A stretch of DNA of 59,733 nucleotides from Clostridia bacterium (GCA_022798895.1 JAAWNJ010000001.1:1-59733), one strand, 5' to 3'. Positions 1,162 to 21,481 are shown, counted from the stretch's first letter. The notes: generated from the sequence alone by a model not told the origin. Numbers and translations are program-made.

Positions 1162-2570
1162 AATAATTCACTTCCTTCCATATTTGGATATAAATCATTA
1201 GATGGGTATAAATCCTCACTTGGAAATAAATAATTGTTGTATGTCTTATTTCCTTCTATTTCTAAGGTTAATATACTTGTCGCTCCTGCTTCTTTTAAAT
1301 ATATTTCTGTTACACCCTCTGCTTCTCGTTTGTACTCTACAGTGTTAGATACTTGTTGCTTGATACTATCTATATCTTGTTTGTATTGTGTAAGTTTATT
1401 TTCATGTTCTGTTTGTTCTTCAATTACATCTTCTACTATCCCATTTATTTTGTCTATTTTACGTTCTACTTGTCTAAATTTAATTTTCGTTGTATCTGTA
1501 TTTTTATATGCTGTCTGTGTTTTCGTTAAGGCTGTAGTTTCTAGTTTTCCGCTATATGCTCCATTAAAAGTAAAAGTGTGATTAAATATATAACTTTCAA
1601 ATTCATTGTCTTTGCTATCTAAAATCTTTATCTTATCTCCACTATCTAAATATGGATAACCATAATAATCTGTTTTAAATGGCAAATACTTCAAACCTTT
1701 TAACTTATTCCATAGTGGCTCTATCGCTTTTTCTCGTTCTGCTTGATCTATTAAGAAGTAATTATCTTCTATTACTAATTCTGTTAGACCATTTTCTGCC
1801 ACACTTACATCATCTTGTAATGTTGTATTTTCTCCCTCTGTTCCAGATATTCTTAATATAAGTGAATTAAGTTCTCCCCATTGTTTATTCTTAGAAAAGT
1901 CTGTAAAATAGTTATTTCCATCTATTGTTTCAACTATTGCAGTTTTATCTAATGAGATTATATAAGGTTTATTGTCCCTTCCTATCTTTGCAAATCCACC
2001 TGCCAATTGTGCTAAATTACTTAATACTACTCTACAAGTTTCGTTGTTTGTAAATGGATTTCCAAGTATCATATAGTCTGCATTTATAAAGTCTATATTT
2101 CCTACTTCCAACCCTACTTGATGACACAAATTTTGGAATAATACTTTAGCTTGACAAGGGTATATTACTTGACTTTTATATGGAACGTCAAACTTAATCA
2201 TATAATCGTACCCTACAAAGCTAGTATTTTCCTTTACTTCTTTATTATCTGGCTTAGGTATTATAAAGTTTCCAAAAGGTACTTCTTCATTTTCATTATC
2301 TATTATCATTCCTGTATAAACTTGTATTTCTTCATTTTCTAAGTCTACTTCATTATTAGGGTTTAAAATATTAACTGTTATCTTCTTTGCTACTGTTGTT
2401 CCTACAAATTTATCATTTATATAGCAGTTATCTTCTATTGTAAAATCTACCAAGTTATCATTTTCTGTTATGTTTGTATCTGTTCCTACAATATGTAATC
2501 TACCTGTCTTTTCATAATTGTTTGCATCTCGCCTACATTCTTCTTTAAATTCATTACTTACTTGATACCT
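1158..2570 (-). CDS. Tail-associated (Tal-like) minor structural protein; proposed AGG start
   Basis: The ORF track gives 1158..2453 (TTG), but the frame is open up to ~2610. SD TAGGTGAT + AAA + in-frame AGG at 2570. Sits after the Dit-like gene. Confidence 0.65.
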   Translation of the reverse strand, partial: RYQVSNEFKEECRRDANNYEKTGRLHIVGTDTNITENDNLVDFTIEDNCYINDKFVGTTVAKKITVNILNPNNEVDLENEEIQVYTGMIIDNENEEVPFGNFIIPKPDNKEVKENTSFVGYDYMIKFDVPYKSQVIYPCQAKVLFQNLCHQVGLEVGNIDFINADYMILGNPFTNNETCRVVLSNLAQLAGGFAKIGRDNKPYIISLDKTAIVETIDGNNYFTDFSKNKQWGELNSLILRISGTEGENTTLQDDVSVAENGLTELVIEDNYFLIDQAEREKAIEPLWNKLKGLKYLPFKTDYYGYPYLDSGDKIKILDSKDNEFESYIFNHTFTFNGAYSGKLETTALTKTQTAYKNTDTTKIKFRQVERKIDKINGIVEDVIEEQTEHENKLTQYKQDIDSIKQQVSNTVEYKREAEGVTEIYLKEAGATSILTLEIEGNKTYNNYLFPSEDLYPSNDLYPNMEGSELL

Positions 2571-2578
2571 TTTATCAC

Positions 2579-2983
2579 CTACAATTCTATTAAGCTCTGG
2601 TCTACTTCATCATATAATTTTCCTATTCCATCAAAGTCAAACAGCATATTTGCTTTTCTATCTCCTCTATAACATTGAATAGTTTTGTATGTACCAGTAA
2701 AAGGGTTGAAAAACTTTACTGATATTGCTCTTCTTGGAATATGTGAATAAAACTCTGTTAATTCTTGCTGAAATAATGGAGTAGTTTTAAGTATTACTTT
2801 AAATTTCTCTGCTATATAGGATAAGTGCATAGTTCCTTTAGCATTTCTTCCTGCATCTAAACTTAAATCGTACCACTCTACTTCATAACCCTTTAGAAAG
2901 TTAGGAGTATATCCCTCAATTTCTATTAAGTTCTTTGGTACATATGTACTATCTATAAATTGTGAAATATATCTCTCTGACCT
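2579..2983 (-). CDS. Distal tail (Dit-like) protein; proposed AGG start
   Basis: The frame opens just after the TMP stop. AGGAGG + 7 nt + in-frame AGG at 2983. The only canonical start (ATG 2830) has no SD and would remove 51 codons. Confidence 0.6.
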   Translation of the reverse strand, partial: RSERYISQFIDSTYVPKNLIEIEGYTPNFLKGYEVEWYDLSLDAGRNAKGTMHLSYIAEKFKVILKTTPLFQQELTEFYSHIPRRAISVKFFNPFTGTYKTIQCYRGDRKANMLFDFDGIGKLYDEVDQSLIEL

Positions 2984-2994
2984 TCTATTACCTC

Positions 2995-5900
2995 CTAAAA
3001 ATTAAATGCTGGCTCTCCTGTTTGCATATAATATTCGTCTGCTCCTGCTTGTACAACTTGGAATATTGCGTTTTTATCTGCTTTTCCTTCTACTTCTACT
3101 TTTATTCTTGAGTTTCTCATACCTTCTATTACTGCTTCTTTTACTTGTTGTGGTAAACTACTACTTACTTCTACATTGCTTTGTGTAGCTATTGCTCCAC
3201 TTATTTGACCATAATCTATAAATTGGTTTGTGTCTATTTTGAAATCGTTTGGATTAATAATAATTCCTTCTGTGCTTAGGTTATTCTTTAAAGAACCTAC
3301 CGCTGATAAAGCTAAGTTCTTTGCATTTTTTACCGCTTCTGGTATCATATCTTTAATACCTAATGTAAAACCTTCTCCGTTATAAACGCCTAGTTGTCTT
3401 GTCTTTTTTGATGGTGAATGTGATAACTGGGCTTGTGCTACACTTTGCAAAGAAGCATTTACCATATCTTTAGCTGCATTTTTTACATAGCCTATTGCAC
3501 TTCTAATACCATTTGCATAACCTGTTGCATTATCTTTTCCTTTTTGGTAGTAATCTCCTGCTCCATCATCAAGCCCTTTTGCTCCTGTATTTGCAACTTT
3601 ATAGTTTACATTATACATATTACCTGATTGAGCATTTATTGCATTTATTGCATCTTGAACTTTCTGTTTTGCTTCTGGTTTCATTTTTTCAAGTGCTTTA
3701 TTAAATGCTTTCTTTCCTTCTTCTGATAAATTGCCATATACTTCTCTTGTTTCTTCTGTCATTCCTGTTACTGCTATTGTAGAAGCTAATATTTTTGCTC
3801 TTGTTTCTTCTGGCAATTTAGATAATGCCTTATTATATTCTCCACTGCTCTTATTTGCCATACTTGCCCATTTTTCAATGTAAGGTTGGCTATTTATATC
3901 AACGTTTCCAATTATGGTATCTAAAATCATTTGCGTTGTTTCGTCAGTGCTTAACAATCTTTGTTCATATTCTGTAGCTGATTTAGAAGATAATTTTTTC
4001 CAAGCATCTATACTTTCTGGTGTCAAGTCCTCTACTGTTTTAGTTTGCTGTGTTAGAGTTCTTATTGTAGTTTCATTTATTTCTTTGCCTTTTTCTTTTG
4101 ATGTATCAGATATATCATCATAATATTTTGTCCAATCCTTTTTAGCCGTTTCAATCTTTTTGCCTGTTTTTTCTAACTCTTTTCTGATTTTTTCTTCTTC
4201 ATCTTTCGCTTTGTTATAGTTAATATCAGCCCAAGCTGTTTTCATACCATTAACTCCTGAAATTTGGTTAGCCAACTTTCCATTTGTTTCTTCAAGTATT
4301 TTATTCTTGTCTGCTTGTGCTTTTGCTGTATTTTCCTCTGCTTCTTTTAATTGCTTTTGCAATTCTAATTGATATTTAAGTTCTTCCTTATAGGTTTCTT
4401 GATATACTTCTAGTTTTATTTGTTCTTCTTTTTTCTTGATGTACTCATCTGTCTTTTTAACTAAGTCATCATAACTTTTTACTACTTTTCCATTTTGTGT
4501 AATTTGATTACCTGTTAGCTTATATTCTGTGCCTAATGCTTTATTTACATCATTTAAAATATATTCAACTCTTGTTTTATAACTATCTTTAACTTTTCCA
4601 TTGCTGTCTATCATGTCTTTCATACTGTCAATTTGTTCTTTAGCAACTTGTAAGTTGATGAGTTGACTATCTTTATTTTTATTAATAGCTTCTATTGTAG
4701 CTTCATGGCTTGATATTAATTGCTCGTGTCTCTTTTTTAAATCTTCAATAGCTTGTGAATTTGCTTGCAAGTTATTATTGTATCCAAGCATTGCCGAACC
4801 AGCACTTAGTACTAATCCTGTTAATGCTCCTACTGCTGTTCCTACTGGTCCGAATACTGAACCTAGCATTGCTCCACTTGCTGTAGCTCCTGCTATACTT
4901 CCTGTTAGTTTTGCAATAGCTTCTCCTGTTCCTATAGTTCCATTTGACAAATCTTGCATTGAACTATAAGTAAGTCCACATGAAGCAACTAAGCCTGCTA
5001 TTCCACCTGCTACTCTTACAGTTTTAGGTATTAAATCTAACATTCCTTGACCTGTTTTAGCTAATGCTTTTCCTACCCCTTCGCCATGTTTTATGTATGT
5101 TTTAAATTGGTCTGCTCCTATTTTTAGCCAAGTTCCAGTATTTTTTAGTCCTGTTCCAACTAAAGCTAATCCATTTTGAAAACTTGTAGTGGGAGTTATT
5201 GTTCCTGTTAGTACTCCACCTAAAGTTCTTACATATCCTATTAATTTTAATAACTTTGCTCCTATATATAGACCTACTAACAATTTTGCTATATTTAATA
5301 TCTTCTTTAAATTAGTATTTCCTTGACCTAATTCCCAAGTAATTTCTCCTGTTAATGGATTTACCTTTTTCGTAAAGCCCAACCATTCCATTATTTTATC
5401 TCTAATTTCAGTAGCTTTACTCTTTACTTTATCCATCATATTGTCATATTCTTTCATAGCATCAAGTAATCTTTGGTCTATTCCTCCAACACTTGCTCCT
5501 CCAGAACCACCACTTGTTTTATCTGGTAAAGTAATATTATTTATTTCATCAAAACCCATTAATTGTTTTTTAAGTTCTTTTGCCTTTCCGCTAGCTGTTC
5601 CTAAATCATCTGCTAAATCATCTGCTCCAACACCTGCACTTATATTTACATTTTGGTCTGATACTTCAAAACCAAATAGCTTTGCAAGCATTTTAAGAAG
5701 TTCATTTATTACCATCATAATTGCGTTTACATATGGAAGTATGTTGCCTAATAATCCTTGCCATAGATTACCCATATTTCTCTTAAATGCTGTTAATTGT
5801 GCATTAAATATCCTTAATTGGTTAGCTGGACTATCCATAGTTTTAGCAAAATCGCCATGTGCTAATGAGGCTTGCCTTAATACTATGATATATCTAGCAA

Positions 5901-6990
5901 TCATTTTTTCTGCTTGTGATAATTGTTTTGTACTTCTTTCAATACCTAATTCATCTAATAAAGGTTCTAGTGATTGTTGTGTTATATCTAATCCTAAATC
6001 TCTTAGTGGCTTAGTTTGTCCTGATAAACCTGCTCTTAGCTTTTGCATTGCATTTTCTGGGTCTATGTTATATAAAGAAGATAAGTCATATCCTAACTTC
6101 GTAAAGTTTTCTGATATCTTATAAGATGGTTCATCTCCTATTCCCATAGACTTAGACATAGCATTAAATAAAGCCTGATATTCCATGCTTTCTTCTATAT
6201 TTATCTTTAATTTGTCTGACAACTTTTCTTGAAAAGCCATAGCTTTTGTATAGTATTTGCTTGCTTCTCTATCTAAGTTTCCATATTGGTCAACAGTTTT
6301 TCCCATTGATACATTAAATAAGTTTTGTGTTTCTACAAAGTCTATACTTTCGGTTGTTGCTTCTTTAAAGAAACCTACTGCTTTTCTTACTCCTAATGCT
6401 ATCGTCCCTATACCTAATGCTGTTTTTAAGTTACTACCAAAATTAGATTTTTTAACTACATTTTTTGTGCTATTGTTAATATTTTTAAGTTCTTTATCAA
6501 ATTGTTTCAATGCGTCTGTTCCAAATGTTTTTTCAATATACTGTCTTAATTCTTGCATTGAGCCTTTTACATCTGTTGTTTCAATATTTATCATTTTTAG
6601 CATTTCTTTAAGTTTATTAGCTTTCGATGTATCACCAAAGGCTCTACATTGTACTTCTGTTTCTTTTAATTTCTCTGCTAAATTTAATATATCTTGTTCA
6701 GCCATTCCTATTTTTTGAGGAGTTTTTTCAATCTCTTGATTTACTTCTTTTATAGGAGCAGAATTAATATTCCTTATTTCACTAGCTAAATTAGCAAAAT
6801 TATTATTTAAAGTCATAAGGTATTTATTAGTTAGTATGCTTTGGTCTATTAGACTTTGAAAAGGTTTTAATGATATAACACCTTCTACAGAACTTCTTAA
6901 TGTCTTAACTTCGCTTATTAACTTGTCTATTCCACTAACTGCACTACCTGCATCTACTGCAATTTTATTCTCTAATGTATTTTCTGCCCT
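2995..6990 (-). CDS. Tape measure protein; proposed AGG start (ATG alternative at 6816)
   Basis: More than 1270 aa with coiled-coil and Gly/Ala-rich hydrophobic blocks, located between the chaperones and Dit. The frame is open 58 codons above ATG 6816, which has no SD. AGGAG + 9 nt + AGG at 6990 overlaps the upstream stop (TAAGG). Confidence 0.85.
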   Translation of the reverse strand, partial: RAENTLENKIAVDAGSAVSGIDKLISEVKTLRSSVEGVISLKPFQSLIDQSILTNKYLMTLNNNFANLASEIRNINSAPIKEVNQEIEKTPQKIGMAEQDILNLAEKLKETEVQCRAFGDTSKANKLKEMLKMINIETTDVKGSMQELRQYIEKTFGTDALKQFDKELKNINNSTKNVVKKSNFGSNLKTALGIGTIALGVRKAVGFFKEATTESIDFVETQNLFNVSMGKTVDQYGNLDREASKYYTKAMAFQEKLSDKLKINIEESMEYQALFNAMSKSMGIGDEPSYKISENFTKLGYDLSSLYNIDPENAMQKLRAGLSGQTKPLRDLGLDITQQSLEPLLDELGIERSTKQLSQAEKMIARYIIVLRQASLAHGDFAKTMDSPANQLRIFNAQLTAFKRNMGNLWQGLLGNILPYVNAIMMVINELLKMLAKLFGFEVSDQNVNISAGVGADDLADDLGTASGKAKELKKQLMGFDEINNITLPDKTSGGSGGASVGGIDQRLLDAMKEYDNMMDKVKSKATEIRDKIMEWLGFTKKVNPLTGEITWELGQGNTNLKKILNIAKLLVGLYIGAKLLKLIGYVRTLGGVLTGTITPTTSFQNGLALVGTGLKNTGTWLKIGADQFKTYIKHGEGVGKALAKTGQGMLDLIPKTVRVAGGIAGLVASCGLTYSSMQDLSNGTIGTGEAIAKLTGSIAGATASGAMLGSVFGPVGTAVGALTGLVLSAGSAMLGYNNNLQANSQAIEDLKKRHEQLISSHEATIEAINKNKDSQLINLQVAKEQIDSMKDMIDSNGKVKDSYKTRVEYILNDVNKALGTEYKLTGNQITQNGKVVKSYDDLVKKTDEYIKKKEEQIKLEVYQETYKEELKYQLELQKQLKEAEENTAKAQADKNKILEETNGKLANQISGVNGMKTAWADINYNKAKDEEEKIRKELEKTGKKIETAKKDWTKYYDDISDTSKEKGKEINETTIRTLTQQTKTVEDLTPESIDAWKKLSSKSATEYEQRLLSTDETTQMILDTIIGNVDINSQPYIEKWASMANKSSGEYNKALSKLPEETRAKILASTIAVTGMTEETREVYGNLSEEGKKAFNKALEKMKPEAKQKVQDAINAINAQSGNMYNVNYKVANTGAKGLDDGAGDYYQKGKDNATGYANGIRSAIGYVKNAAKDMVNASLQSVAQAQLSHSPSKKTRQLGVYNGEGFTLGIKDMIPEAVKNAKNLALSAVGSLKNNLSTEGIIINPNDFKIDTNQFIDYGQISGAIATQSNVEVSSSLPQQVKEAVIEGMRNSRIKVEVEGKADKNAIFQVVQAGADEYYMQTGEPAFNF

Positions 6991-7743: not shown

Positions 7744-8205
7744 TTAGTTATCACTTGTTGGTAACAATGCACTTACTTCTGTGCTATTTTTATCCACAAT
7801 ATTTTGTGGTGTTATTGAAAGTGTTGCTTCTACTGCACTATTTTGTGATACTGCATTCTTCCTTGTTGAAGCACTACCTTCAATTAAAGTACCCGTATTG
7901 TCTTGGAATACGATTAAAAATTCGTGTATATTTCCATCACAATATGGTTTAACTTTTGTAAAGTAGTTCTTTTCAGTATAGTTGTATAAAAAGTTTTGTA
8001 GTGTACTGTCTTGTCTACCTGCTACATATTGTTTAATTTTGCTTTTTAATGTAGTTACTTCAATTTGTTCTGGATCTGACCCACTTTCTGGTACATCTTT
8101 GATTTCTACTAGCTCCTCAAATGCTGTTGCACCTTTCTTTTTACCATAAAGCATAATTCCAATGTCACTTTGTCCTACTATTTCAATTTCGTTTTCTCCT
8201 GCCCT
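7744..8205 (-). CDS. Major tail protein; proposed AGG start
   Basis: ..EELVEIKDVPESGSDPEQIEVTTLKSKIKQYVAGRQD.. resembles siphovirus major tail proteins. The frame opens at 8211. AGGAGG + 9 nt + AGG at 8205. ATG 8154 has no SD. Confidence 0.75.
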   Translation of the reverse strand, partial: RAGENEIEIVGQSDIGIMLYGKKKGATAFEELVEIKDVPESGSDPEQIEVTTLKSKIKQYVAGRQDSTLQNFLYNYTEKNYFTKVKPYCDGNIHEFLIVFQDNTGTLIEGSASTRKNAVSQNSAVEATLSITPQNIVDKNSTEVSALLPTSDN

Positions 8206-8211
8206 TCGACA

Positions 8212-8631
8212 TTACCTCCTATAAATTATATTATTTTTTATTTTGCCTTCAAACTGTATAGCTTCTCTTGAAACATTTATATCTGCATTTTTTCTTGGGT
8301 CTGGGTCATTACCTTTAAATCTGTAATGTTCCTCAAACACTTTATAAACTAAATCTTCAAGTTCTTCTATAATAGTTTGTCTGGCTATTTTTTTACTTCC
8401 AACGGTCTTGTCCGTTGCATATATTTCTATTTCAATTTTAAAATTATATTTTTGCTCTGTGTATTTTAATGTTTCATCAATTATCGTTATTCTAGGTTTT
8501 TGTACTATTACTAGTGGAAATATCTTACTTTCAGTTGGCGCTGATTTTAGAACTTTAGGTGCATATTTAGATTTCTGTTCTATATATTGTTTTGTAAATT
8601 GATATAACTGATCATATAGTTCTGTTCTCCT
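8212..8631 (-). CDS. Hypothetical tail-completion / head-tail joining protein; proposed AGG start
   Basis: A 140-codon open frame fills an otherwise empty 414-nt gap. It has no ATG/GTG/TTG in the first ~100 codons, so it is absent from the ORF track. GAGAGGTG + 6 nt + AGG at 8631. Confidence 0.6.
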   Translation of the reverse strand, partial: RRTELYDQLYQFTKQYIEQKSKYAPKVLKSAPTESKIFPLVIVQKPRITIIDETLKYTEQKYNFKIEIEIYATDKTVGSKKIARQTIIEELEDLVYKVFEEHYRFKGNDPDPRKNADINVSREAIQFEGKIKNNIIYRR

Positions 8632-9152: not shown

Positions 9153-9518
9153 CTACTTGTTAGGCAGTTTCTCAAAAAATATTAATATTTTCCTGTTTTG
9201 ATTTCTTACACTATCTACTCGATAATTTGCATTATCTCCAAAAACTTCTTCGCCTTCTGGCGTAGTATCTTCTATATATGCTAAATCGTTTTCTTTAAAC
9301 TTACCTAAATACTTATCATAGTCTAATAATACTTTTTGCATTTTACTTACTTTATTTCCATATTCTTCTATGTCTGTACTACCACTTAAAGGTTGTATAT
9401 TTTCTTTGCCTATAAATTCTGGTTCAGTATAAATAGTTATTTTGTTTCCGTAGTCATCTAAACTATCTTCTATAAAACTTGCAATATATAATGATTTTTT
9501 CTTCCAATTATTTCTCAT
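9153..9518 (-). CDS. Head closure / head-tail adaptor protein
   Basis: 121 aa; ATG overlaps the upstream gene; located in the head-tail connector block. Confidence 0.5.
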   Translation of the reverse strand: MRNNWKKKSLYIASFIEDSLDDYGNKITIYTEPEFIGKENIQPLSGSTDIEEYGNKVSKMQKVLLDYDKYLGKFKENDLAYIEDTTPEGEEVFGDNANYRVDSVRNQNRKILIFFEKLPNK

Positions 9519-9856
9519 TTAATAACACCTGCCTCTGGTGGTGGCAGTTCATTTAATAAGTCTTGTGAAATACCTGCTCTAGCATAAGTTTCACTTAGTC
9601 CATTTTCTGAATATGAAGTTAAGTTTTCATCTCCTGCTAGATTGTACAATTCAATAGCACATTGGGTTTGCCATTCTCTTGCACTATCATCTGGTAACTC
9701 TGTCATTTCTCTATATCTAAAAGGATAAACTAATCTAAGATAACGAAACTTAGCACGTTTTAGTTTTATTTTAAAAACTTCATCTTTGCTTGTATTTTCA
9801 GCATCTTCAAGAATTTCTATTCGCATTTCTTTTAGTTGCTCTTCAGCTGTTATCAT
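9515..9856 (-). CDS. Head-tail connector protein
   Basis: 113 aa with SD + ATG, downstream of the capsid gene. Confidence 0.5.
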   Translation of the reverse strand: MITAEEQLKEMRIEILEDAENTSKDEVFKIKLKRAKFRYLRLVYPFRYREMTELPDDSAREWQTQCAIELYNLAGDENLTSYSENGLSETYARAGISQDLLNELPPPEAGVIK

Positions 9857-10247: not shown

Positions 10248-11267
10248 CTATCCGTTTGTTACTAATTTTGCCATTGGAATTGTTTTGTGTGGCATTTTTC
10301 TTTTCCAGCTTGCACTATCAAATAGTTCAGTATCATTATAAATAAGTTTCTTTGTGGTTGGCTCAAAACTAAATCCATTTGGGTGTAAAGCTTCCGTTAC
10401 TCTTGTGATAAGAGTATCTTGTCCACCATTTTTAGTTGGCTCTCTCATTGCTTCTACTGGATAACTTTGATTTCCTTTACCCATTAAGATACTTCCTGTT
10501 CCTAATAGATAAGTTGTATATTCTTTTTCTCCTGTTGCTGTTGCACTATCAGCTACTGGCATACCATCATCTACTATTACTAACTTTCCATTATAGTATC
10601 CTATGTTTAATGGTCTTGTAATTCCTGATGGGTCTGTATATTTACTATATTCTAGTAATTGTAAATTTTCTAATGTTTTGGCTACATTAGAGTGCATTAT
10701 AGCCATTGCAAAACTATCTTTGTGGTCTCCTAATGCTTTTGTAATCGCATCATTAAGAGTTGTTGCACCAATTTTATTGGCATCTGTTACGCTTGATCCA
10801 GTTGTTGCAACATTATAAATATGTTGTGATAACTCTGTATCTCCTGTAATCCCAAAAATACCATTTAACAAAGCTATAATTTGTCTTTGTCTATATTTGT
10901 TCCAATATTTTGCAACTCTACCTATAATATGACCCATTGGATCTGCTCCTTGTACATCATTAATAAAATCTCTTGCAGTCCAACCTTTCCATCTCTTATA
11001 AGCTGTACCGCTTTGTGTATCACCTTCTACTTCTTTTGTTGTTAAATCTGTTTTGCCATCATTCACTAATGGATCTTCATTATCAATATCCTTTAAGAAT
11101 GGTATTGTATATTGTAACCCTGCCCCTTGTAAGTTCGCTGTTAATTCAGCACTGTTTACTACTGCACCGCTTTCTAATAGTGCTGTTAATACTGGGTCTG
11201 GCTCTGCTCCCCATCTATTAACAAAAATTTCTTCATCGAATGGAATACCTAAATATGTTCCTGCCCT
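10248..11267 (-). CDS. Major capsid protein (SPP1 gp13-like as recalled); proposed AGG start
   Basis: The ORF track starts at GTG 11066, but 69 further upstream codons (..GTYLGIPFDEEIFVNRWGAEPDPVLTALLESGAVVNSAEL..) are clearly coding. AGGAGG + 9 nt + AGG at 11267. Confidence 0.85.
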   Translation of the reverse strand, partial: RAGTYLGIPFDEEIFVNRWGAEPDPVLTALLESGAVVNSAELTANLQGAGLQYTIPFLKDIDNEDPLVNDGKTDLTTKEVEGDTQSGTAYKRWKGWTARDFINDVQGADPMGHIIGRVAKYWNKYRQRQIIALLNGIFGITGDTELSQHIYNVATTGSSVTDANKIGATTLNDAITKALGDHKDSFAMAIMHSNVAKTLENLQLLEYSKYTDPSGITRPLNIGYYNGKLVIVDDGMPVADSATATGEKEYTTYLLGTGSILMGKGNQSYPVEAMREPTKNGGQDTLITRVTEALHPNGFSFEPTTKKLIYNDTELFDSASWKRKMPHKTIPMAKLVTNG

Positions 11268-11282
11268 TCGACATTACCTCCT

Positions 11283-11948: not shown

Positions 11949-13625
11949 TTAACCCTCGTTAGCTGAGATATTTTTATCTATACTTTGATTTTCCTTTTTC
12001 TCTGCTTTATCATCTGTTTTTTTGCTACTCATATTTGTGTCGTTACCATCTCCTATAACATTTGATACTGCTTTTTTCCAAAGGTCATCTCCATAATATT
12101 CTTTTGCCTTCTCAAATACTTCATTAGGGTCATTGAATAATCCTATAACTGTAAATGCTATATCTGGTGGGCATTGTGCTGACATTAAATTCATAAGTGC
12201 TTGTGTCTTTACTAATATGTTGTCTGATTTGTTTCTTGTAAATTTAATATCTATATCACTTAATTTTAAACCTTTTAAATTTTCTGATTTGCCTTTTAAT
12301 TTTTCATTGCATATATTTAAAATCAATTTTAAAAACTGTCTTTCTGGCTTTTTAAATGAAAGTTCATCTTGTTTTGCTCTTTCATCTGCCATTGTCCAAC
12401 CTTCTCCTAGTAGTCTTGCTTGTCCTGTATCTCCTCCAGAAGGTTTATCATTTAGTCTTGGAATACCTACTATTGTTAATACATCATTATATATTCCATC
12501 TTTGTATGTCTTAACTTGTGAATTATCCATTTTTTGACCTAACAATTTTATGTCTGCTGGCTTGCTTGGGTCTGACGTTGATATCTCTACTGCACCAAGT
12601 TTTATTATTTCTTTATGCCTATCTATATCTATTTGTTGATTTATATATACTAATAAACTTTGTACAAATTGTTCTATATCGTCCAATTCGTTACTTGTTA
12701 TTCTATTTATAGCGTTTAACTGTGATATAACTAATTCTATAAGCCCAAGTCTATTTTTATTTAAAGGGTATTCTATAATTCTAAAGCCCTTAATTTGTAA
12801 TGGATATGGGTTAGGTAATTTCTTTTTTAAACCTAATTTATTCTTTTTAAATAATGGTTTTAGTTGCAATCTTCCATATTGTGTAGTTAATATCATTATT
12901 TTATCTTCACAATAAATTGTATATTCTTGATATTCTCCTATTGGTGGTGTATCCTGCGTTGTTATCTCATTACTAAAATTTTGGATATAAAATGAAAATA
13001 ACTGCTCTTCTGTAATTCCTGTACTGTATACTACGCCTGTTCTTTTAGGGTCTGGTGTAGATATTTCAAATGGTGCTTCGTCTTCATCTTCTGGGTTATC
13101 TTGGTCAGCCCATCTATACCCTGTACCTATTTTGTACCACCATTCTGAAAGTTCTTTATCTTTACTAGATTTATCTTCACTTTCCATAAATTTGTTAAGT
13201 AAAGATATTTTAGGGTTTGTATGTTCTGTTTCTTTCTCTCCCTTTTGCACATATTGTACTGGGTCTCCAAAAACATAAGATTTTTTAAATTCTACTATTT
13301 CATAAGCGTGGTTTACTAGGATTTTATTATTTATTTCTGGTCTTATCTTTTTAGTTTTTTCTAATATGGGCTGAATACCTTTATAGAAATTATCAAGATA
13401 CTCTATATCTGAAACATTTTGATTATGTATTGCCAATATTTCTGGCATTTTTTCTATTATATTTTCTGGTGTAAGTTCATCTTTTTGTAAGTTACAATAG
13501 ATAACTTTTCTTCCACTAAAACGATTTCGTTCATTTTCTGTAGCTGATTTTTCTTCATTTTCTTGTGTTACTTTGTCTATTGTTTCTTGAATTACATCTT
13601 TTTTAGTTTCTTCGTTTTCTTCCCT
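11949..13625 (-). CDS. Portal protein (SPP1 gp6-like); proposed AGG start
   Basis: Portal-like core (..IEYLDNFYKGIQPILEKTK..). The ORF-track start (GTG 13733) runs through a strong hairpin. TGGAGGA + 6 nt + in-frame AGG at 13625. No canonical start for the next ~60 codons. Confidence 0.8.
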   Translation of the reverse strand, partial: REENEETKKDVIQETIDKVTQENEEKSATENERNRFSGRKVIYCNLQKDELTPENIIEKMPEILAIHNQNVSDIEYLDNFYKGIQPILEKTKKIRPEINNKILVNHAYEIVEFKKSYVFGDPVQYVQKGEKETEHTNPKISLLNKFMESEDKSSKDKELSEWWYKIGTGYRWADQDNPEDEDEAPFEISTPDPKRTGVVYSTGITEEQLFSFYIQNFSNEITTQDTPPIGEYQEYTIYCEDKIMILTTQYGRLQLKPLFKKNKLGLKKKLPNPYPLQIKGFRIIEYPLNKNRLGLIELVISQLNAINRITSNELDDIEQFVQSLLVYINQQIDIDRHKEIIKLGAVEISTSDPSKPADIKLLGQKMDNSQVKTYKDGIYNDVLTIVGIPRLNDKPSGGDTGQARLLGEGWTMADERAKQDELSFKKPERQFLKLILNICNEKLKGKSENLKGLKLSDIDIKFTRNKSDNILVKTQALMNLMSAQCPPDIAFTVIGLFNDPNEVFEKAKEYYGDDLWKKAVSNVIGDGNDTNMSSKKTDDKAEKKENQSIDKNISANEG

Positions 13626-13778: not shown

Positions 13779-13988
13779 CTAAAAATAATATTCAAATTGA
13801 TTTACATAATTTTTAGGTTTGTCTGGATTTTCTACTTTGTATCTATCACATTTTGTTACATATATAACATATTGTCCCCAATAGTCTTTTTCCCTTGATA
13901 CTTGTTTCATGTAATCTTTTTTTATATTTCCATATCTATGTTTAAAACACTCTTCCCAATGTTCACATTTCCAACAAATATTCTTCCT
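13779..13988 (-). CDS. Cys-rich small protein (69 aa); proposed AGG start
   Basis: Open frame ..KNICWKCEHWEECFKHRYG..CDRYKVENPDKPK.. fills the portal-upstream gap. GAAGGTGAT + AAA + AGG at 13988. Confidence 0.45.
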   Translation of the reverse strand, partial: RKNICWKCEHWEECFKHRYGNIKKDYMKQVSREKDYWGQYVIYVTKCDRYKVENPDKPKNYVNQFEYYF

Positions 13989-14283: not shown

Positions 14284-14560
14284 AACTCCTCCTATTTTCC
14301 TCTAATCTAATTCTATAACAATGCTCAAGACAATCGTAACCTATTTCAACGGTTATACCATATTTAGCTTTAAGTAAAAATAATTTTGTTTCTATATAGC
14401 TTGTAGTTCTTAGTTCTGTTTCTCTAATCTCATTGTCATATATGCTAATTTCACTTTTTTTAAACGAAATTAACTCATTGAACTTTTGGTCTATAATATC
14501 ACATACTTCTTCATATCTTTTTAATTGTTCCTCATTCATATATTTAAACTTTGCTATCAT
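14243..14560 (-). CDS. Hypothetical protein
   Basis: 105 aa; ATG overlaps the TerL stop. Confidence 0.5.
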   Translation of the reverse strand: MIAKFKYMNEEQLKRYEEVCDIIDQKFNELISFKKSEISIYDNEIRETELRTTSYIETKLFLLKAKYGITVEIGYDCLEHCYRIRLEENRRSYGIRRSNKKCKKI

Positions 14561-15939
14561 ATTCCTAACAAACTCCTATTCAATGGTTTTGGTTTATTTG
14601 GCTTTCCTCTTTCGAGTATTATCTCTGTTACAAATAATGTTGCACTGTCTGGAGCGTCATCATTTCTATTTGGGTAATCAAAACTATATGTAGTTAAGTT
14701 TTTCATAAACCTACCATAGTCACTATTTGGCTTATAATCTTTCTTATGTTTAAAATATAGCATTTTCCTAATTGTACCTTGATTTTGATTTATTCTTCTT
14801 TCCTTAACCATTGTGCTATACTTTTCTGTAATGTTACAATAAAATATTCCTCTTTTTTCTAGCATTTCATCTAACAATGTTTTTAGTGAAGTATCTGTAT
14901 TGTTTTCTATCGCTAACCAAGTAATATGGTGTTCTTCTATCTTTGCAACTATTTCATCATATAAATCTGTAATTCCCTTTTTCTTAAAGATACAATCTAT
15001 CATATAGTAGTTTTTTCCATCTGTTTTGCATATTGGCATAGAAATATTATCTCGTCCTTTTCTTGTTGTATCTAATACCGCTAATGAATAATTGCTATAT
15101 GCTGGTGTTCCATCTTCATTTACAGGAAGTCTGTCAAAGTGATTTAACAATTCATCTGCGAAGTCAAGTCCTTCTGCTGGTATCGGGTCTTGCTGATATA
15201 CACAAGCCCATTGAAAATCATCTGTTACATCTCTTAATTGTCTTGCTTCTTCTGTTGTCATTACTGCTTCACAAGTTGTTTCATCGTTTTCATCTAGTAA
15301 TGGCACTCTTATTACTACTGTCGAACCGTCTTTACTTTCCCATACATACTTAAATTGTTTACTTGGAACTAACTCTGATATTGTTTCTCTATCTTGTATA
15401 ATTCTATTTAGTATATCTTCTGGTGACCACATTGTACCTGCAAATACAAATTTTGTACTATCTCCATCACGTCTATTTATCCAATTTCCAGTCCATTGAT
15501 TATATATATCTTGATGTTTTTTGCTGTCTGTTGCCTCTTCTGCTCCTTTGGTCATATCATCAAATATCATTGCTTTATTTGCTCTTTTACCAGTAACCTG
15601 TCCGTCTCTTGAAACTGCTATATGTGAATGTGCTACATTTGTGTCTTTTAATTTCCAGTTATACACTTCTTTTGTTGAAAATGGGTTATCTCCATACTGT
15701 TGATATTCTAGAAATACATCTCTATATCTCTTATCTGTTATTATTTCTCTTACTGTTCTACTAAAACCTGCTACTAGGTCATCTGAATAAGATAATCTTA
15801 TTATTGAGTTATTTCTATCTACTCCAAACAACCAAGCCGTCCAATATGTAAGTGTTACTGATTTACCTGTACTAGGTGGATAAGAAGCCACTATATACTT
15901 TAATTTATCTGAAAAGGTAATTTTATTTAAGTAAAACAA
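14557..15939 (-). CDS. Terminase large subunit
   Basis: Walker A ..YPPSTGKS.., ..MIFDDMTKG.., and a C-terminal nuclease-like part ..LAVLDTTRKG..NRNDDAPDS... Only a TTG start without SD; Walker A lies ~24 residues from the predicted N-terminus. Confidence 0.8.
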   Translation of the reverse strand: MFYLNKITFSDKLKYIVASYPPSTGKSVTLTYWTAWLFGVDRNNSIIRLSYSDDLVAGFSRTVREIITDKRYRDVFLEYQQYGDNPFSTKEVYNWKLKDTNVAHSHIAVSRDGQVTGKRANKAMIFDDMTKGAEEATDSKKHQDIYNQWTGNWINRRDGDSTKFVFAGTMWSPEDILNRIIQDRETISELVPSKQFKYVWESKDGSTVVIRVPLLDENDETTCEAVMTTEEARQLRDVTDDFQWACVYQQDPIPAEGLDFADELLNHFDRLPVNEDGTPAYSNYSLAVLDTTRKGRDNISMPICKTDGKNYYMIDCIFKKKGITDLYDEIVAKIEEHHITWLAIENNTDTSLKTLLDEMLEKRGIFYCNITEKYSTMVKERRINQNQGTIRKMLYFKHKKDYKPNSDYGRFMKNLTTYSFDYPNRNDDAPDSATLFVTEIILERGKPNKPKPLNRSLLGI

Positions 15940-16028
15940 AAATGGCTTTAAAACGCATTTACGTCCGTTCTAGTACCCTTTTAGTATTGTTCATTTCCAT
16001 ATATTCAAAAAAATGTTCTAGCGATCTT

Positions 16029-16316
16029 CTACCGAGCAAATGCCATACACTTTTCATATAGTTTGTAATAGTCTGCTTGATATTTAATTTCACATTTTAT
16101 AATTCTACTTTGCGTTGCTGGTAGTAAAAATGTAATTGCATATCTACAAGCATTCAATTCAATTTCTTGCCTATTCTTTGCATTTTTACCAGTATCAAAA
16201 TACTCTAATAATAACTGATACAATGCTTCACACATTGTCAAATATGAGTATTCATCTGGTACTTTACCTTTTAATGCTGTTATTATCTCTTTTATTGTTT
16301 TTTCATAATCTTGCCT
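16029..16316 (-). CDS. Hypothetical 95-aa protein upstream of TerL (small-terminase candidate by position); proposed AGG start
   Basis: The frame opens right after TAA. AGAGGTG + 8 nt + AGG at 16316. The ORF track starts 25 codons later. Confidence 0.5.
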   Translation of the reverse strand, partial: RQDYEKTIKEIITALKGKVPDEYSYLTMCEALYQLLLEYFDTGKNAKNRQEIELNACRYAITFLLPATQSRIIKCEIKYQADYYKLYEKCMAFAR

Positions 16317-17301: not shown

Positions 17302-17547
17302 TTACCCTAATTCCTCCAATCTTCTCTTATCTCTTTCATTTGTTGGAAAGCCTACTATTTCTACTAAACTGTACTTTGGTAAATCTAGTGCTATTTCTAT
17401 TTTCCTTGCTCTTACTGAACCTATTTGTATTGAACCATTTATTATATTTGACACATTTTGCTTAGGTACTTGCAATTTATCTGCCAACTGCTGTTGTGTC
17501 ATATTCTTTTTTTGTAATATTAGTTTTATATATGTTCCTATTTGCCT
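17302..17547 (-). CDS. XRE-family HTH regulator; proposed AGG start
   Basis: The ORF track starts at MTQQQLADKL, inside the HTH. Extending to AGG 17547 (GGAGGTG + 7 nt) restores xQIGTYIKLILQKKNMTQQQLADKLQV, a typical XRE N-terminus. Confidence 0.7.
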   Translation of the reverse strand, partial: RQIGTYIKLILQKKNMTQQQLADKLQVPKQNVSNIINGSIQIGSVRARKIEIALDLPKYSLVEIVGFPTNERDKRRLEELG

Positions 17548-18326: not shown

Positions 18327-18331
18327 ATATA

Positions 18332-18514: not shown

Positions 18515-18588
18515 TGGGTGCAGGTAGCAGTAACGCTCTGCTCGCTTCGCCTAAGGAGGACGATATGTTACTTCTACACCAACCTGCA
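18515..18588 (-). tRNA. Atypical tRNA with anticodon CCU (reads AGG)
   Basis: 74-nt cloverleaf. Acceptor TGCAGGT/ACCTGCA. D stem GTGT/ACAT. Anticodon stem TCGTC/GGCGA with loop CTCCTTA. Variable loop AGCG. T stem AGCAG/CTGCT. Discriminator C + CCA. D loop AGAAGTA lacks GG, and T loop AGCGTTA lacks TTC. Confidence 0.6.
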
Positions 18589-18593
18589 ATATA

Positions 18594-18669
18594 TGGTTGC
18601 TGAGTGTCGGAATTGAACCGACTTTTTGTAGCTTATGAAACTACTAAGATACCTTACCTACCACTCGCA
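18594..18669 (-). tRNA. tRNA with CAU anticodon (Met/Ile2-type), irregular acceptor
   Basis: T arm GTCGG-TTCAATT-CCGAC. Anticodon arm GTAGT-TTCATAA-GCTAC. Encoded A + CCA. Acceptor TGCGAGT/ACTC(A)GCA has a bulged A. Lies 5 nt (tatat) upstream of the CCU tRNA. Confidence 0.55.
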
Positions 18670-19244
18670 ATATAAAACAAATATATTATTAGAGTTTCCC
18701 CTTACAATTAATTATCTATCTTAATTATTCAACCACTAGGAAGATAAATCTGAGCATAAAGTTGCGACCTCTATACTTTTTACCCCTTTTCAAAGTTCCT
18801 TTTACAAAACCTTTACCCTACATACGATTGATTACGTATAAATTCCACCCATCATTCAGATATTGATGTTATTTTCCTAATAACAAAATTTGCTCTGTTT
18901 TTATCTCGTTTGGGCTACTTTAACCTAGTTATGTCTTATAGTTCCTTTTCAAGAACTTCACGAGAAATAGTCTTACTTAGCATTACCTACATTGCTTTAT
19001 ATTTGCTAAATATAAGTTATAGGCTTATTGACTACTAGTCCGTCTATTGCGACTACGACAACTCTAGTGTTTTATTAAGCGATAATATTTGCACATTATC
19101 CAGTATTGGTTTTAACACCTACTCTACATACATTACTGTACATAGAAAGCAACCTTACAAACGTATCCGTCTGTCTAACTACTTATCGGATAATTCCAAG
19201 CCACATGATATTGTGGTTTAGCACTTGGGTAATAATATATTTAT
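18670..19244 (-). ncRNA. ORF-free structured RNA segment between tRNA-like genes
   Basis: No SD-preceded ORF on either strand, and visibly higher G+C than the flanks. Many nested helices, e.g. CCAAG..CCACA-ATATCA-TGTGG-CTTGG (19196-19228), TATCCG..CGGATA, and GATAAT-GTGCAAAT-ATTATC. Confidence 0.35.
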
Positions 19245-19323
19245 TGGAGCTTTCTATAGGATTTGAACCTACATTAAAGGTTTAATTACTATTCCAATGT
19301 GTTTCCATTTACACTAAGAAAGC
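19245..19323 (-). ncRNA. tRNA-like RNA lacking a canonical anticodon arm
   Basis: Perfect acceptor GCTTTCT/AGAAAGC + T + CCA. D arm GTGT-AAATGGAA-ACAC. Canonical T arm GTAGG-TTCAAAT-CCTAT. The 25-nt anticodon region forms only an AT hairpin. Confidence 0.45.
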
Positions 19324-19426
19324 ATATACAGGAATTGCACTATTCCAACTAGTATGTAGAGGCTTAATTTGCCTCTAGGCTGTGCATTTCCAGAAACCTT
19401 TTCTACAACTTGGTAGATAGGTAATT

Positions 19427-19567
19427 TGTGTAGGTAATAATTTGCACATTACATGTTCCCTCTCACGCACAATTTAACCGACAGTCACCGAATTTAATCT
19501 CGTGTCACATTGCTAACTACTAAGAGGAAACTTACAGTTTAGCGTCTACCTATTCCGCCACTACACA
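19427..19567 (-). ncRNA. Expanded tRNA-Tyr-like RNA (~141 nt)
   Basis: Acceptor TGTGTAG...CTACACA. Class-II-type D arm GCGG-AATAGGTAGA-CGC. CTGTAAG loop (GTA) on a bulged stem. ~65-nt insert. T-like arm GTAATG-TGCAAAT-TATTAC. No encoded CCA. Confidence 0.35.
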
Positions 19568-19688
19568 TCTTTGCAAGCCTAATCACTTGCTAGGAATTGA
19601 AGCCCTCATATTTTATATAAATATTACTTGCCACCTATTTATTTCACAATTCTTTAACTATATAAAGATAGTTAGTGATTGTTAAAAA

Positions 19689-19949: not shown

Positions 19950-19962
19950 TCTAATTTTCCTC

Positions 19963-20169
19963 CTAATCTTTCTTTACTGTAACTTTAAATATTGAACTTA
20001 AAATCCATACTATAAATGCTACTGCTAGTCCATGCCAATAAGTCCAAGTAAAGGTTATTCCAAATGCCCATATTATAAATGAACCTATTCCCCAAAATAT
20101 TAAGCCTGATAGTGCAAATCCTATTGTTAAGCCTAAAATTATTGCTATAATTGTTTCTAATACTTTCAT
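19963..20169 (-). CDS. Small two-TM membrane protein
   Basis: 68 aa with two hydrophobic helices; ATG overlaps the upstream stop. Confidence 0.6.
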   Translation of the reverse strand: MKVLETIIAIILGLTIGFALSGLIFWGIGSFIIWAFGITFTWTYWHGLAVAFIVWILSSIFKVTVKKD

Positions 20170-20514
20170 TTACTTTACTTCCATATTCCTTACACCTATT
20201 TCTGGTTTATTTCCAAAGAAATTACTATACAATATCTTTATTCCATATTTTGTTGCTACTTCGTGTTCTATAACACAACCTCTTGCTTCTCGCCAATTAT
20301 CACACATATATATTGCATCTATATCTTTCATGGCACTTATTGATTTTCCTAAATAAAATACTGCCGTATTACAATTTTCTGGTGCTTCTTCTGAAAATAA
20401 TGTATTTATTACATCTATGTGCATTTTATTGAATTTATCTACTATTTCTTTTCTCTCTGTCTTTATTTGTTCTTCCGTTTTACCTCTCATAGGTTGACTT
20501 ATCATTATTTTCAT
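20170..20514 (-). CDS. Hypothetical protein (possibly nucleoside deoxyribosyltransferase-like fold)
   Basis: 114 aa, tightly packed with its neighbours. The fold assignment is only a recollection. Confidence 0.4.
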   Translation of the reverse strand: MKIMISQPMRGKTEEQIKTERKEIVDKFNKMHIDVINTLFSEEAPENCNTAVFYLGKSISAMKDIDAIYMCDNWREARGCVIEHEVATKYGIKILYSNFFGNKPEIGVRNMEVK

Positions 20515-20712
20515 TTATCTCTCATCTCCTTTTATCATAATTGGTATATCTGCTATAAATTCGTCTATTTGTCTTGCTTTCTTTTCATAATGGTTAATAA
20601 TAGATGTATGTTCACTATTAGTTGAACAATACATTATTTGACTATTAGCTATATTCCACTTGCATTTTGCTAATAATCTATGTAATTCTATATAATCTTC
20701 TTCGTTATCCAT
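20515..20712 (-). CDS. Hypothetical protein
   Basis: 65 aa, contiguous with its neighbours. Confidence 0.5.
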   Translation of the reverse strand: MDNEEDYIELHRLLAKCKWNIANSQIMYCSTNSEHTSIINHYEKKARQIDEFIADIPIMIKGDER

Positions 20713-20724
20713 AAATTACTTCTT

Positions 20725-21015
20725 TTATATTTCCTCGTAAACTCCATTCTTATCTTTCATTTTCTTTAAACACTCTTTAAATTCATTCTCGCTCATATTG
20801 TTTGGAACAAACCTATCAACTACTTCTTGAAAATCATAGATATAATTATCAAATATGTCTTGTGCTTCTTCTCTTGCTTTCCATTCTTGATAACCTCGTT
20901 TCATTATTACTTTTACATAGTCCTCAAACGTCATATTTATATGTGTAGGATGTTCAACCACTGTACTAAACCTACAATATTTTCCATTAGGTTGTTTTGA
21001 TATAAAACCTCCCAT
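20725..21015 (-). CDS. Hypothetical protein
   Basis: 96 aa; AGGAGA + ATG. Confidence 0.6.
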   Translation of the reverse strand: MGGFISKQPNGKYCRFSTVVEHPTHINMTFEDYVKVIMKRGYQEWKAREEAQDIFDNYIYDFQEVVDRFVPNNMSENEFKECLKKMKDKNGVYEEI

Positions 21016-21025
21016 AAATTATCTC

Positions 21026-21481
21026 CTAACAATATAATTTAGCCCATTTAGTATTTTCAAAAGTCTTAGATAATGTCTTGTTTACTCTAGCACCTCTCAT
21101 AAATATATATGGATTAACTAAGTAATTGTTCTCTTTACCTGTTCTTACTTTGGCTAATATCTTTTTATCTACTAATTCGTCTATTGCTCTTACAATGCTT
21201 GTATTAGATATAAAATCACATCTTCTTTTAATGTCATCTAATGTCAATTTAGATCCATTTTCATAGGCTAAATAACCTGTATCATACCTAACATATTGTA
21301 ATAGCTCTAAACATACTGACATTTCTGTAGAAGATAGTTTCTCTCTTGCCAACACACTAGCTGATTTCAGAAAGAACTTAACATACATTTCTGTTTTTTG
21401 TATTTCATCTGTATTTTTTAGAAAATCTATTGACTTTTTTCTTAAAACTCTATCTCCTTCATTAAGTTCTACGTAATTCCT
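21026..21481 (-). CDS. RepL-like / winged-helix DNA-binding protein; proposed AGG start
   Basis: ..STEMSVCLELLQYV..NTSIVRAIDELVDKKILAKV..YLVNPYIFMRG.. The frame opens right after the upstream TAG. AGGAGG + 8 nt + AGG at 21481. ATG 21388 has no SD. Confidence 0.6.
   Translation of the reverse strand, partial: RNYVELNEGDRVLRKKSIDFLKNTDEIQKTEMYVKFFLKSASVLAREKLSSTEMSVCLELLQYVRYDTGYLAYENGSKLTLDDIKRRCDFISNTSIVRAIDELVDKKILAKVRTGKENNYLVNPYIFMRGARVNKTLSKTFENTKWAKLYC

Follow-up and report, generated by a model that had tools for sequence, protein, structure and literature searches.

AGG at the start position of packaging and virion genes in a clade of Clostridia temperate phages, with a phage-encoded tRNA(CCU) as its probable initiator

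We analyzed a complete contig of 59,733 bp and about 29% G+C from a metagenome-assembled genome (MAG) of a Clostridia bacterium, and refer to this whole stretch as the window. A prophage occupies about 1-47 kb and is transcribed mostly from the minus strand. Its packaging, head and tail module, recognized with Pfam and PHROG profiles, runs from 17.9 kb down to 1.1 kb, and an RNA cluster at 18.2-19.6 kb holds a tRNA, a ROOL RNA, a tRNA-like element and a second tRNA. This report concerns the codon AGG, which stands at the start position of genes in this prophage, and the second tRNA of the cluster, which carries the anticodon CCU (tRNA(CCU)) and is a candidate initiator for these starts. For comparison, 40 related loci, designated by L-numbers, were collected from ENA, Logan, IMG/VR, GTDB MAGs and JGI metagenomes, from sources that included mouse, rabbit and wolf gut. 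They include an AGG-type group and ATG-type sister phages (L004, L011/L026 and L021/L022), the capsids of the latter being 77-82% identical.

At each of 11 firm sites, all on the minus strand, a Shine-Dalgarno (SD)-like motif was followed after 4-9 nt by an in-frame AGG with an A before it. In the coordinates below, the upper limit of each gene is the first base of its AGG. The Tal-like tail protein (1158-2570, AGG at 2568-2570) aligned with a PHROG tail protein from residue 2, with the AGG conserved, and the Dit-like protein of the DUF6711 family (2579-2983, AGG at 2981-2983) had 134 aa when counted from its AGG, which is the length of the 134-position Pfam profile. The start of the tape measure gene (2995-6990, AGG at 6988-6990) overlaps the upstream stop (TAAGG). 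The tail tube gene (7744-8205, AGG at 8203-8205) begins where L004 has ATG gca gga gaa, and a 139-codon open reading frame (ORF) with no assigned function (8212-8631, AGG at 8629-8631) begins directly after an in-frame stop. In the major capsid gene (10248-11267, AGG at 11265-11267), Met1 of the homologues aligned with the AGG. The portal gene (11949-13625, AGG at 13623-13625) matched Pfam SPP1_portal (5.9e-52) and its AGG was conserved, and the gene for a small Cys-rich protein (13779-13988, AGG at 13986-13988) has ATG in L004 and L011. The remaining three encode the large terminase TerL (14557-16316, AGG at 16314-16316), which matched the PHROG terminase large subunit and has AGG in all AGG-type loci; an XRE-type helix-turn-helix (HTH) protein (17302-17547, AGG at 17545-17547), whose Pfam HTH_3 match begins at residue 7 counted from the AGG; and a 151-codon ORF with no family match (21026-21481, AGG at 21479-21481), for which L015 retains both SD and AGG. 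One 24-nt block of ribosome-binding site and start (AGGAGGTAATGTCGAAGGGCAGGA) occurs unchanged at the tail tube gene (8197-8220) and at the capsid gene (11259-11282), both on the minus strand, and is present at both genes in several relatives too.

A preliminary description of this DNA had reported AGG at the start codon of at least 11 phage genes, always preceded by A, and both statements hold at the 11 firm sites. It had also stated that these frames lack a canonical start. This is so for ten genes, in which the earliest in-frame ATG, GTG or TTG lies 15-97 codons downstream of the AGG, but not for the portal frame, in which a GTG precedes the SD-linked AGG by 36 codons and the next canonical start follows the AGG after about 59 codons. 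At 8631 and 16316, and likewise in the portal gene of the relative L001, an in-frame stop directly precedes the AGG. None of the near-cognate codons ATT, ATA and CTG stood at SD distance between the upstream stop and the AGG, and because AGG is also the first codon of the frame in three genes, we rejected other near-cognate starts. The Pfam matches to DUF6711 and HTH_3 require the N-terminal extension up to the AGG, so the proposed restoration of the HTH N-terminus by a start at 17547 stood. Two of the earlier labels did not: what had been taken at 16316 for a separate protein upstream of TerL is the TerL N-terminus, and the name "RepL-like" for the ORF at 21481 found no family support.

The other genes of the same module start in the usual way with an SD and ATG, and at six of these starts the context is AATG; the scaffold, connector and chaperone genes and the entire early module retain ATG. 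As had been claimed, the host genes and the genes between 22 and 47 kb have canonical starts throughout, save an ambiguous one at 31858. This possible twelfth AGG-start gene (31166-31858, minus strand, AGG at 31856-31858) has the SD-like motif GGAGAGTGA, a 5-nt spacer and A-AGG, and a GTG lies three codons upstream, within its SD. An extra candidate at 21985 (GGGAGAGTAA-AGG) was dropped because the L015 orthologue has AGA.

Next, we compared the AGG codons with the starts of homologous genes. Read from its AGG, the capsid begins xAGTYLGIPFDEEIF, as compared with MADKFLGIPFDEEIF and MAGYYLNFPFD in homologues, and full-length capsid homologues start with M-A/P-G/D precisely at the AGG-GCA-GGA of the window. 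In the capsid alignments and in the orthologous loci, Met1 of the homologues fell on the AGG and not on the downstream ATG, and related prophages had either ATG or AGG at the same codons, in keeping with the earlier proposal. AGG was found at the orthologous codon of eight genes in about 20 related contigs from more than 25 samples, with varying SD and spacer sequences; these genes encode Tal, Dit, the tape measure, tail tube, capsid and portal proteins, the Cys-rich protein and TerL (every AGG-type member). The capsid AGG occurred in about 20 loci and seven different spacer contexts, with ATG in L004, L011 and L021, and the Dit-like AGG was kept in 12 distinct contexts, with ATG in L004, L011 and L022. 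At these positions the ATG-type sisters had ATG or TTG instead.

AGG and canonical starts also interchange among close relatives at two other genes. The HTH gene starts with AGG in the window, L001/2, L012, L015 and L019, and with ATG in L008/9, L010, L014, L017 and L037. The ORF at 8631 reads AGG aga aca gaa cta tat in the window and ATG aga cca caa ata tat in L005; its orthologue has ATG in L012 and L019 as well and GTG in L010 (GTG aga cca aat ata tat), and in L001 it has no canonical start anywhere in frame. In the divergent L042 from wolf gut, further genes have turned to AGG.

We then took a reference-free census with one pick per ORF, the first SD-linked start-like codon. It replaced a count of every codon 3-11 nt after an SD, which was uninformative since the neighbors of true ATG starts were counted too. 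In the window, AGG made up 10 of 20 picks in 1-22 kb, 1 of 27 in 26-47 kb and none of 5 in the host genes. In the relatives it accounted for about 45% of picks in AGG-type loci vs. 4 of 102 in six ATG-type control phages. SD strength was effectively the same at AGG and ATG starts (-8.5 and -7.4 kcal/mol, respectively; median spacing 6 nt). Within the AGG-type group, the segments between the AGG and the first canonical start showed 251 synonymous vs. 332 non-synonymous codon changes, which indicates purifying selection; pairwise synonymous:non-synonymous counts in the N-terminal segment of the capsid included 9:3 and 9:4. Because they are under purifying selection, the segments after the AGG appear to be translated. 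In a capsid search, most close relatives (73-93% identity) were gene calls of 229-298 of the 339 residues, and these shortened calls are the signature of a missing canonical start.

The tRNA(CCU) gene (18515-18588, minus strand), located at the head of the late region, forms a 74-nt cloverleaf with the anticodon loop CUCCUUA, U1-A72, C73 and an encoded CCA, and was detected by ARAGORN at the relaxed threshold only. In L002 the same slot (2327-2400), with identical flanks and the same length, is filled by another, clearly different CCU tRNA, detected by both ARAGORN and Rfam at their default thresholds. A CCU tRNA was present in all 16 AGG-type loci that cover the tRNA region; these correspond to about 11 non-redundant phages and carry 12 distinct tRNA sequences, the copy in L012/L024 having been located via Rfam and read by eye. 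The tRNA at 18515-18588 had been named as a possible partner of the AGG starts, and the comparison bore this out: a CCU tRNA co-occurred with AGG starts in 11 of 11 non-redundant AGG-type phages with the region visible vs. none of six ATG-type relatives, and the ATG-type L004 has instead a tRNA(CAU) with A1-U72.

To examine the structure of these tRNAs, we aligned 11 CCU tRNAs with the CAU tRNA of L004 (12 sequences). Of the cells of the cloverleaf, 90% were paired, vs. 65.5% in shuffles and about 40% with the partners slid; compensatory change was seen at 17 of 21 pairs, and the anticodon stem was 100% paired. The cloverleaf pairing and compensatory changes suggest that the CCU tRNAs are under selection for tRNA structure. 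An independent pattern scan of IMG/VR for an initiator-bodied tRNA(CCU) yielded two more tRNAs (L030/L034 and L033), giving 14 distinct sequences in total. They lie in unrelated short phage contigs, one of them with 45% G+C (L030 at 6259-6335, L034 at 2162-2238, L033 at 3006-3081), and have C1xA72 or U1-A72 and the loops CUCCUUA and UUCCUUA. Their presence there raises the possibility that the AGG system may occur outside this capsid clade. Matches of the scan in L031, L035 and L036 were discarded as chance matches in high-GC coding DNA.

We asked which features of an initiator these tRNAs carry. Bacterial initiators have a mismatch or a very weak pair at 1:72, which serves recognition by the formylase Fmt and rejection by EF-Tu. 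The 1:72 mismatch, together with the pairs 2:71 and 3:70, is the determinant for Fmt, and the hallmarks for formylation and the P site include A73 and three consecutive G-C pairs of the anticodon stem (29:41, 30:40 and 31:39), G30-C40 being the essential one (PMC5389676). Across the 14 CCU tRNAs, position 1:72 was CxA in six, AxA in three, UxC in one and U-A in four, the window copy included; ten are unpaired there, and the G1-C72 of elongators occurred in none. The Fmt determinants G2-C71 and C3-G70 were present in all 14, and the pairs 2:71 to 5:68 were all paired in the 12-sequence alignment. Both A73 and G30-C40 were found in 13, the exception being the window copy with C73 and U30.G40; G29-C41 was found in eight, and 31:39 was mostly U.G, with G31-C39 in only two. 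The neighboring cluster tRNAs (Thr, Pro, Gln, Ser and most Trp copies) mostly had a paired 1:72. The defining departure from an initiator tRNA is the anticodon, CCU and not CAU in all variants.

Some variants (L030, L002 and L033) have a body of the initiator (tRNAfMet) type. The L030 tRNA, with loop CUCCUUA, differs from a phage initiator in L043 (C1xA72, GGG/CCC, loop CUCAUAA) in this loop only by A35C and A37U. When three CCU tRNAs were compared by BLAST with 50,697 deposited phage genomes, only the L030 type gave matches, with no CCU type among the matches listed; the L030 tRNA matched 105 records, and those listed were annotated as tRNA-Met or tRNA-fMet.

Position 37 of tRNAs is almost always a purine, and tRNAs that read ANN codons have a modified A37. 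All 14 CCU tRNAs have U37. In the AGG-type phages, the base before the AGG start was A in 70 of 80 distinct contexts, about five of the ten exceptions being SD motifs mispicked by the script, whereas, of 87 contexts of ATG starts in the same phages, 29 had A and 50 had T at this position (Fisher p = 3e-13 vs. AGG). In E. coli, position 37 of tRNAfMet pairs with the mRNA base at -1 (A37U and A37G mutants; Höllerer and Jeschek, PMC10018350). U37 in every variant and A(-1) at the AGG starts imply the pairing AAGG:CCUU. The two combinations, T(-1) and ATG with the A37 of the host and A(-1) and AGG with the U37 of the phage, are those expected if the CCU tRNA reads AGG in the P site, and the match between U37 and A(-1) would explain why the start is always AAGG.

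These observations suggest the following mechanism. The 30S subunit would bind an ordinary Shine-Dalgarno sequence and the phage tRNA would enter the P site, where C34-C35-U36 would pair with A-G-G and U37 would add a fourth pair with the A preceding the AGG. The host initiator tRNA(CAU) would mismatch AGG at the middle base, and because of this mismatch the AGG genes would be essentially untranslatable without the phage tRNA. Late genes would thereby be gated by the phage tRNA, early, replication and host genes would keep ATG, and internal AGG would be read as arginine by host elongator tRNAs. The AGG-start genes include all the indispensable packaging and virion proteins, namely TerL, portal, capsid, tail tube, tape measure, Dit and Tal.

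It is thus very probable that these genes start at AGG and that the phage tRNA(CCU) reads this codon as an initiator. We also consider it likely that a clade of Clostridia temperate phages possesses a natural orthogonal initiation system, with AGG starts for packaging and virion genes, its own CCU/U37 initiator tRNA and gating of late genes. From the features of the tRNA we infer P-site use and formylation; that late-gene translation would be gated or insulated is suggested by the likeness to stop-codon-recoded phages. The identity elements for arginyl-tRNA synthetase (ArgRS) are A20 and C35, and C35 strongly disfavors methionyl-tRNA synthetase (MetRS). CCU with C35 was found in all variants, and A20 was mostly absent, with U20 by inspection. 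The amino acid on tRNA(CCU) is most likely Arg, since C35 and U36 favor ArgRS, with Met as a possible alternative, and the first residue of the major virion proteins would probably not be methionine.

Several observations weigh against an initiator role for tRNA(CCU). A tRNA with CCU would be a very poor substrate for MetRS, and the usual U20 stands in place of the Arg identity element A20. The full set of three G-C pairs (GGG/CCC) occurs in only one variant, that of L012. By BLAST, the tRNA bodies of the window, L010, L015, L017 and L037 are unlike tRNAfMet, although this branch retains the same acceptor end and anticodon loop. The window copy is the least initiator-like, with U1-A72, C73, U30.G40 and the non-canonical T-loop AGCGTTA; it falls below the default threshold of ARAGORN and is the most divergent of the 14 variants. 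No AGG starts were seen in L030/L034 and L033, contigs of only 4-8 kb without visible structural genes. L020 has three AGG starts preceded by T, its tRNA lying outside the view; the initiator model predicts A37 in that tRNA(CCU). Finally, TerL of the window has a private extra frameshift, and this prophage may be defective.

We weighed four other explanations against initiation by tRNA(CCU). In the first, the tRNA would be an ordinary elongator tRNA-Arg for the rare codon AGG, and the host tRNA(CAU) would read AGG starts weakly, giving deliberately low expression. ARAGORN indeed types the tRNA as Arg(cct), and AGG is a rare yet used sense codon, with 26 internal occurrences; some variants, that of the window among them, combine a paired U1-A72 with a body unlike tRNAfMet. 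The invariant G2-C71 and C3-G70, together with the lack of a 1:72 pair in 10 of the 14 variants and of G1-C72 in all, argue otherwise, and U37 would be abnormal for an elongator that reads ANN codons, besides being matched by A(-1) at the starts. The native initiator tRNA does give low-level AGG initiation (bioRxiv 10.64898/2026.04.16.719103), but the capsid, portal and tail tube proteins are needed in high copy number and not at the level of trace initiation. Moreover, the tRNA is absent in six of six ATG-type relatives despite their AGG sense codons. Taken together, these data make an elongator role unlikely.

It is very unlikely that AGG initiation proceeds without this tRNA, either by coupling of termination to reinitiation or by a phage factor that relaxes proofreading by initiation factor 3 (IF3). 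Some AGGs do abut or overlap an upstream stop (TAAGG at 6990; TAA AGG at 8631 and 16316), whereas the capsid, tail tube, Dit, Tal and HTH genes have strong SDs of their own and are not adjacent to a stop in frame. Defects in ribosome assembly or IF3 permit AGG initiation in E. coli reporters (PMC6868393), but neither route explains the strict co-occurrence with tRNA(CCU), the match of U37 and A(-1), or the constant choice of AGG.

A reassignment of AGG to Met as a sense codon, in the phages or in the host, is extremely unlikely, even though the tRNA is one base away from a Met anticodon (CAU to CCU) and a CAU tRNA-like element adjoins it. Of the 26 internal AGG codons in the phage genes of the window, 24 had aligned homologues, and these had R 213 times, K 65 times and M not once. 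In addition, host and early phage genes start with ATG, and the missing 1:72 pair argues against use in elongation. No in-frame stops are read as sense, the ORFs being intact under table 11 apart from the TerL frameshift; by the alignments, the elongation code is unchanged and internal AGG is still arginine. Lastly, there is practically no chance of a sequencing or assembly artefact or of a dead prophage with decayed starts: the contig is metagenome-assembled, with a private 1-nt insertion in TerL and an atypical tRNA(CCU), but more than 25 independent assemblies, from different samples and assemblers (SPAdes, MEGAHIT, Logan), contain these AGGs, AATG starts coexist in the same phage, so that neither a simple AATG-to-AAGG error nor the systematic base-call error considered in the preliminary description can explain the pattern, and the start codons show one and the same T-to-G change in every case, accompanied by purifying selection and compensatory tRNA-stem changes, on which grounds artefact and decay are excluded for the clade.

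The TerL gene deserves separate mention. A tblastn search with the single-ORF TerL of L004 mapped to three frames of the window, the ORF at 16316 being the N-terminus. A conserved +1 frameshift site lies at 15955-15973 (minus strand), about 118 codons after the AGG start; the 0 frame reads ...CTA GAA CGG NCG TAA and the +1 frame opens AAC GGN CGT AAA TGC. In an alignment of 13 relatives, the site was shared by L001/2, L005, L008/9, L014, L015 and L017, as seven distinct sequences, and its variable base is synonymous in the +1 frame (GGA or GGT); in L004, L010, L011, L012, L019, L020 and L042, which are one nucleotide shorter here, TerL is a single ORF. CGG was used once in 5,413 phage codons and never in 2,959 host codons, and because it is almost unused, a shift at a slowly decoded "hungry" CGG is plausible. 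We looked across the loci for a tRNA that tracks the +1 frameshift and found no correlation. The tRNA cluster of L005, which has the +1 site, contains a tRNA-like gene (2996-3066) whose anticodon loop is 8 nt long (ARAGORN "aata"); across the loci it showed no consistent link to the frameshift.

The window alone has an extra base at 16025-16043 (minus strand), GCT C GGT AGA vs. GC-A GGT AGA in 12 relatives, which introduces a second frameshift into TerL and, once more, a CGG codon. The extra base may have arisen in assembly, may inactivate the gene or may mark a second site at which a shift is tolerated. Because of the atypical tRNA(CCU) and the private TerL insertion, the prophage in the window may be defective, unless the insertion is an error of assembly. 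Relatives such as L002, L009, L010, L015 and L042 are better representatives of the system than the window.

The remainder of the RNA cluster is as follows, all on the minus strand. Directly upstream of tRNA(CCU), and in L002 too, is a tRNA-like element (18599-18668; Rfam tRNA, 29.6 bits at 18601-18666; ARAGORN relaxed) whose anticodon loop has CAU and whose acceptor stem is irregular. A ROOL RNA (18671-19252; Rfam RF03087, 311 bits) sits between the first tRNA and the pair of CAU-like element and tRNA(CCU). It is also found in L002, L010, L011 and L012, and because L011 is of the ATG type, the ROOL RNA occurs independently of AGG starts. The first tRNA of the cluster (19245-19323; ARAGORN, Rfam 44 bits) has an unusual AGU anticodon arm and a normal G1-C72. 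In this slot (window, L002, L008-L012, L037 and L039) the acceptor stem GCUUUCU/AGAAAGC is constant and the anticodon arms differ: UGU (Thr), UAC (Val), AGU with an 8-nt variable loop (window) and UCC-like, and in L039/L041 a UCA arm, typed "SeC", which is a possible UGA reader. Upstream of the first tRNA a non-coding stretch is conserved (window 19330-19620, L002 1400-1580, L005 2400-2570). It opens like the D-arm of a class II tRNA (GTGGCGGAATAGGTAGACGC), runs on for about 200 nt and has no Rfam match; possible readings are a tRNA that contains a large insertion and a structured RNA of another kind. A promoter and terminator scan around the tRNA cluster gave no enrichment over shuffles. In L012, an AGG-type relative, two tandem skipping-rope RNAs (9359-9541; Rfam RF02924, 59 and 63 bits) lie within the structural module.

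The early and replication module of the prophage (26-44 kb) encodes Erf, HNH, DnaB-like, RusA, RNA ligase and RtcB proteins. The DnaB-like helicase region (37729-40474, minus strand) is split into several ORFs without proper starts and adjoins an HNH endonuclease gene (39702-40235), and may reflect an intron, an intein or a decayed gene. The RtcB tRNA-splicing ligase (27458-28654, minus strand; PHROG 2.6e-132) and the RNA ligase (30265-30894, minus strand) form a tRNA-repair toolkit. RtcB, the RNA ligase, the ROOL RNA and the TerL +1 frameshift suggest a broader investment in the manipulation of translation. The host genes (48-59.7 kb) include a sortase, a short gene like alanyl-tRNA synthetase (AlaRS), an SDR, a sigma/anti-sigma pair, an M23 peptidase, tRNA-Gln and tRNA-His. 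The AlaRS-like gene (49520-51274, minus strand), just outside the prophage and beside tRNA-Gln and tRNA-His, encodes 584 residues with a class II catalytic domain and an SAD fragment, far shorter than a normal AlaRS, and also matches PHROG 28604 (3.6e-126). We saw no direct link between this gene and the CCU tRNAs, because the latter have C3-G70 and not the alanine identity pair G3.U70.

To our knowledge, all bacterial-type translation, cellular and viral, uses one initiator tRNA (CAU) and AUG or near-cognate codons. Our full-text literature searches, incomplete in coverage, found no natural AGG-initiating system and no natural initiator tRNA other than CAU. A natural second initiator for a chosen set of genes would, if true, break the rule of one initiator and be the initiation counterpart of stop-codon recoding. 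It would explain a systematic mis-annotation, in which capsid calls have 229-298 of 339 residues and at least one AGG-start ORF is missed altogether, and it would offer synthetic biology a naturally optimized orthogonal pair of initiator and start codon, including the fourth pair between 37 and -1. Possible advantages to the phage are silencing in the lysogen, escape from host shut-off or tRNA-targeting defenses, and exclusion of competitors.

The proposed system can be compared with four known ones. The phage tRNA resembles bacterial tRNAfMet in its absent or weak 1:72 pair, G2-C71, C3-G70, A73 and G30-C40, and in the SD-positioned use of the P site that these suggest. It differs in having CCU and U37, in reading AGG, in a 31:39 that is mostly U.G and in probably not carrying Met, and also in serving only a subset of the genes of one phage, alongside the host initiator. 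In engineered orthogonal initiation (amber initiator, i-tRNA-AAC, i-tRNA-CCU), the initiator anticodon and the start codon are likewise changed together, and when 12 such pairs were compared in E. coli, induction was largest for the initiator tRNA with CCU and an AGG start in nearly every strain tested (bioRxiv 10.64898/2026.04.16.719103). In E. coli, initiation is also raised when position 37 and the base at -1 are complementary (PMC10018350). Those systems are synthetic, whereas that of the phage would be natural and conserved in a clade, would add U37 and would control essential virion genes.

The closest parallel in nature is stop-codon recoding in phages, in which suppressor tRNAs of the phage read TAG or TGA (Borges et al., 10.1101/2021.08.26.457843; Peters et al., PMC9523058). 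There, as proposed here, a phage tRNA with an altered anticodon is needed to decode mainly late and structural genes, and in both cases gene callers that follow standard rules truncate or break genes. The difference is that here the start codon would be recoded, the elongation code being standard and the tRNA acting in initiation. An AGG-to-Met sense reassignment was reportedly found by Shulgina and Eddy in 2021 in an uncultivated clade of Bacilli. There, as in the present phages, a CCU tRNA is linked to AGG in low-GC Firmicutes; the Bacilli case, however, is a genome-wide change in elongation, whereas here internal AGG stays Arg and only the starts would be affected.

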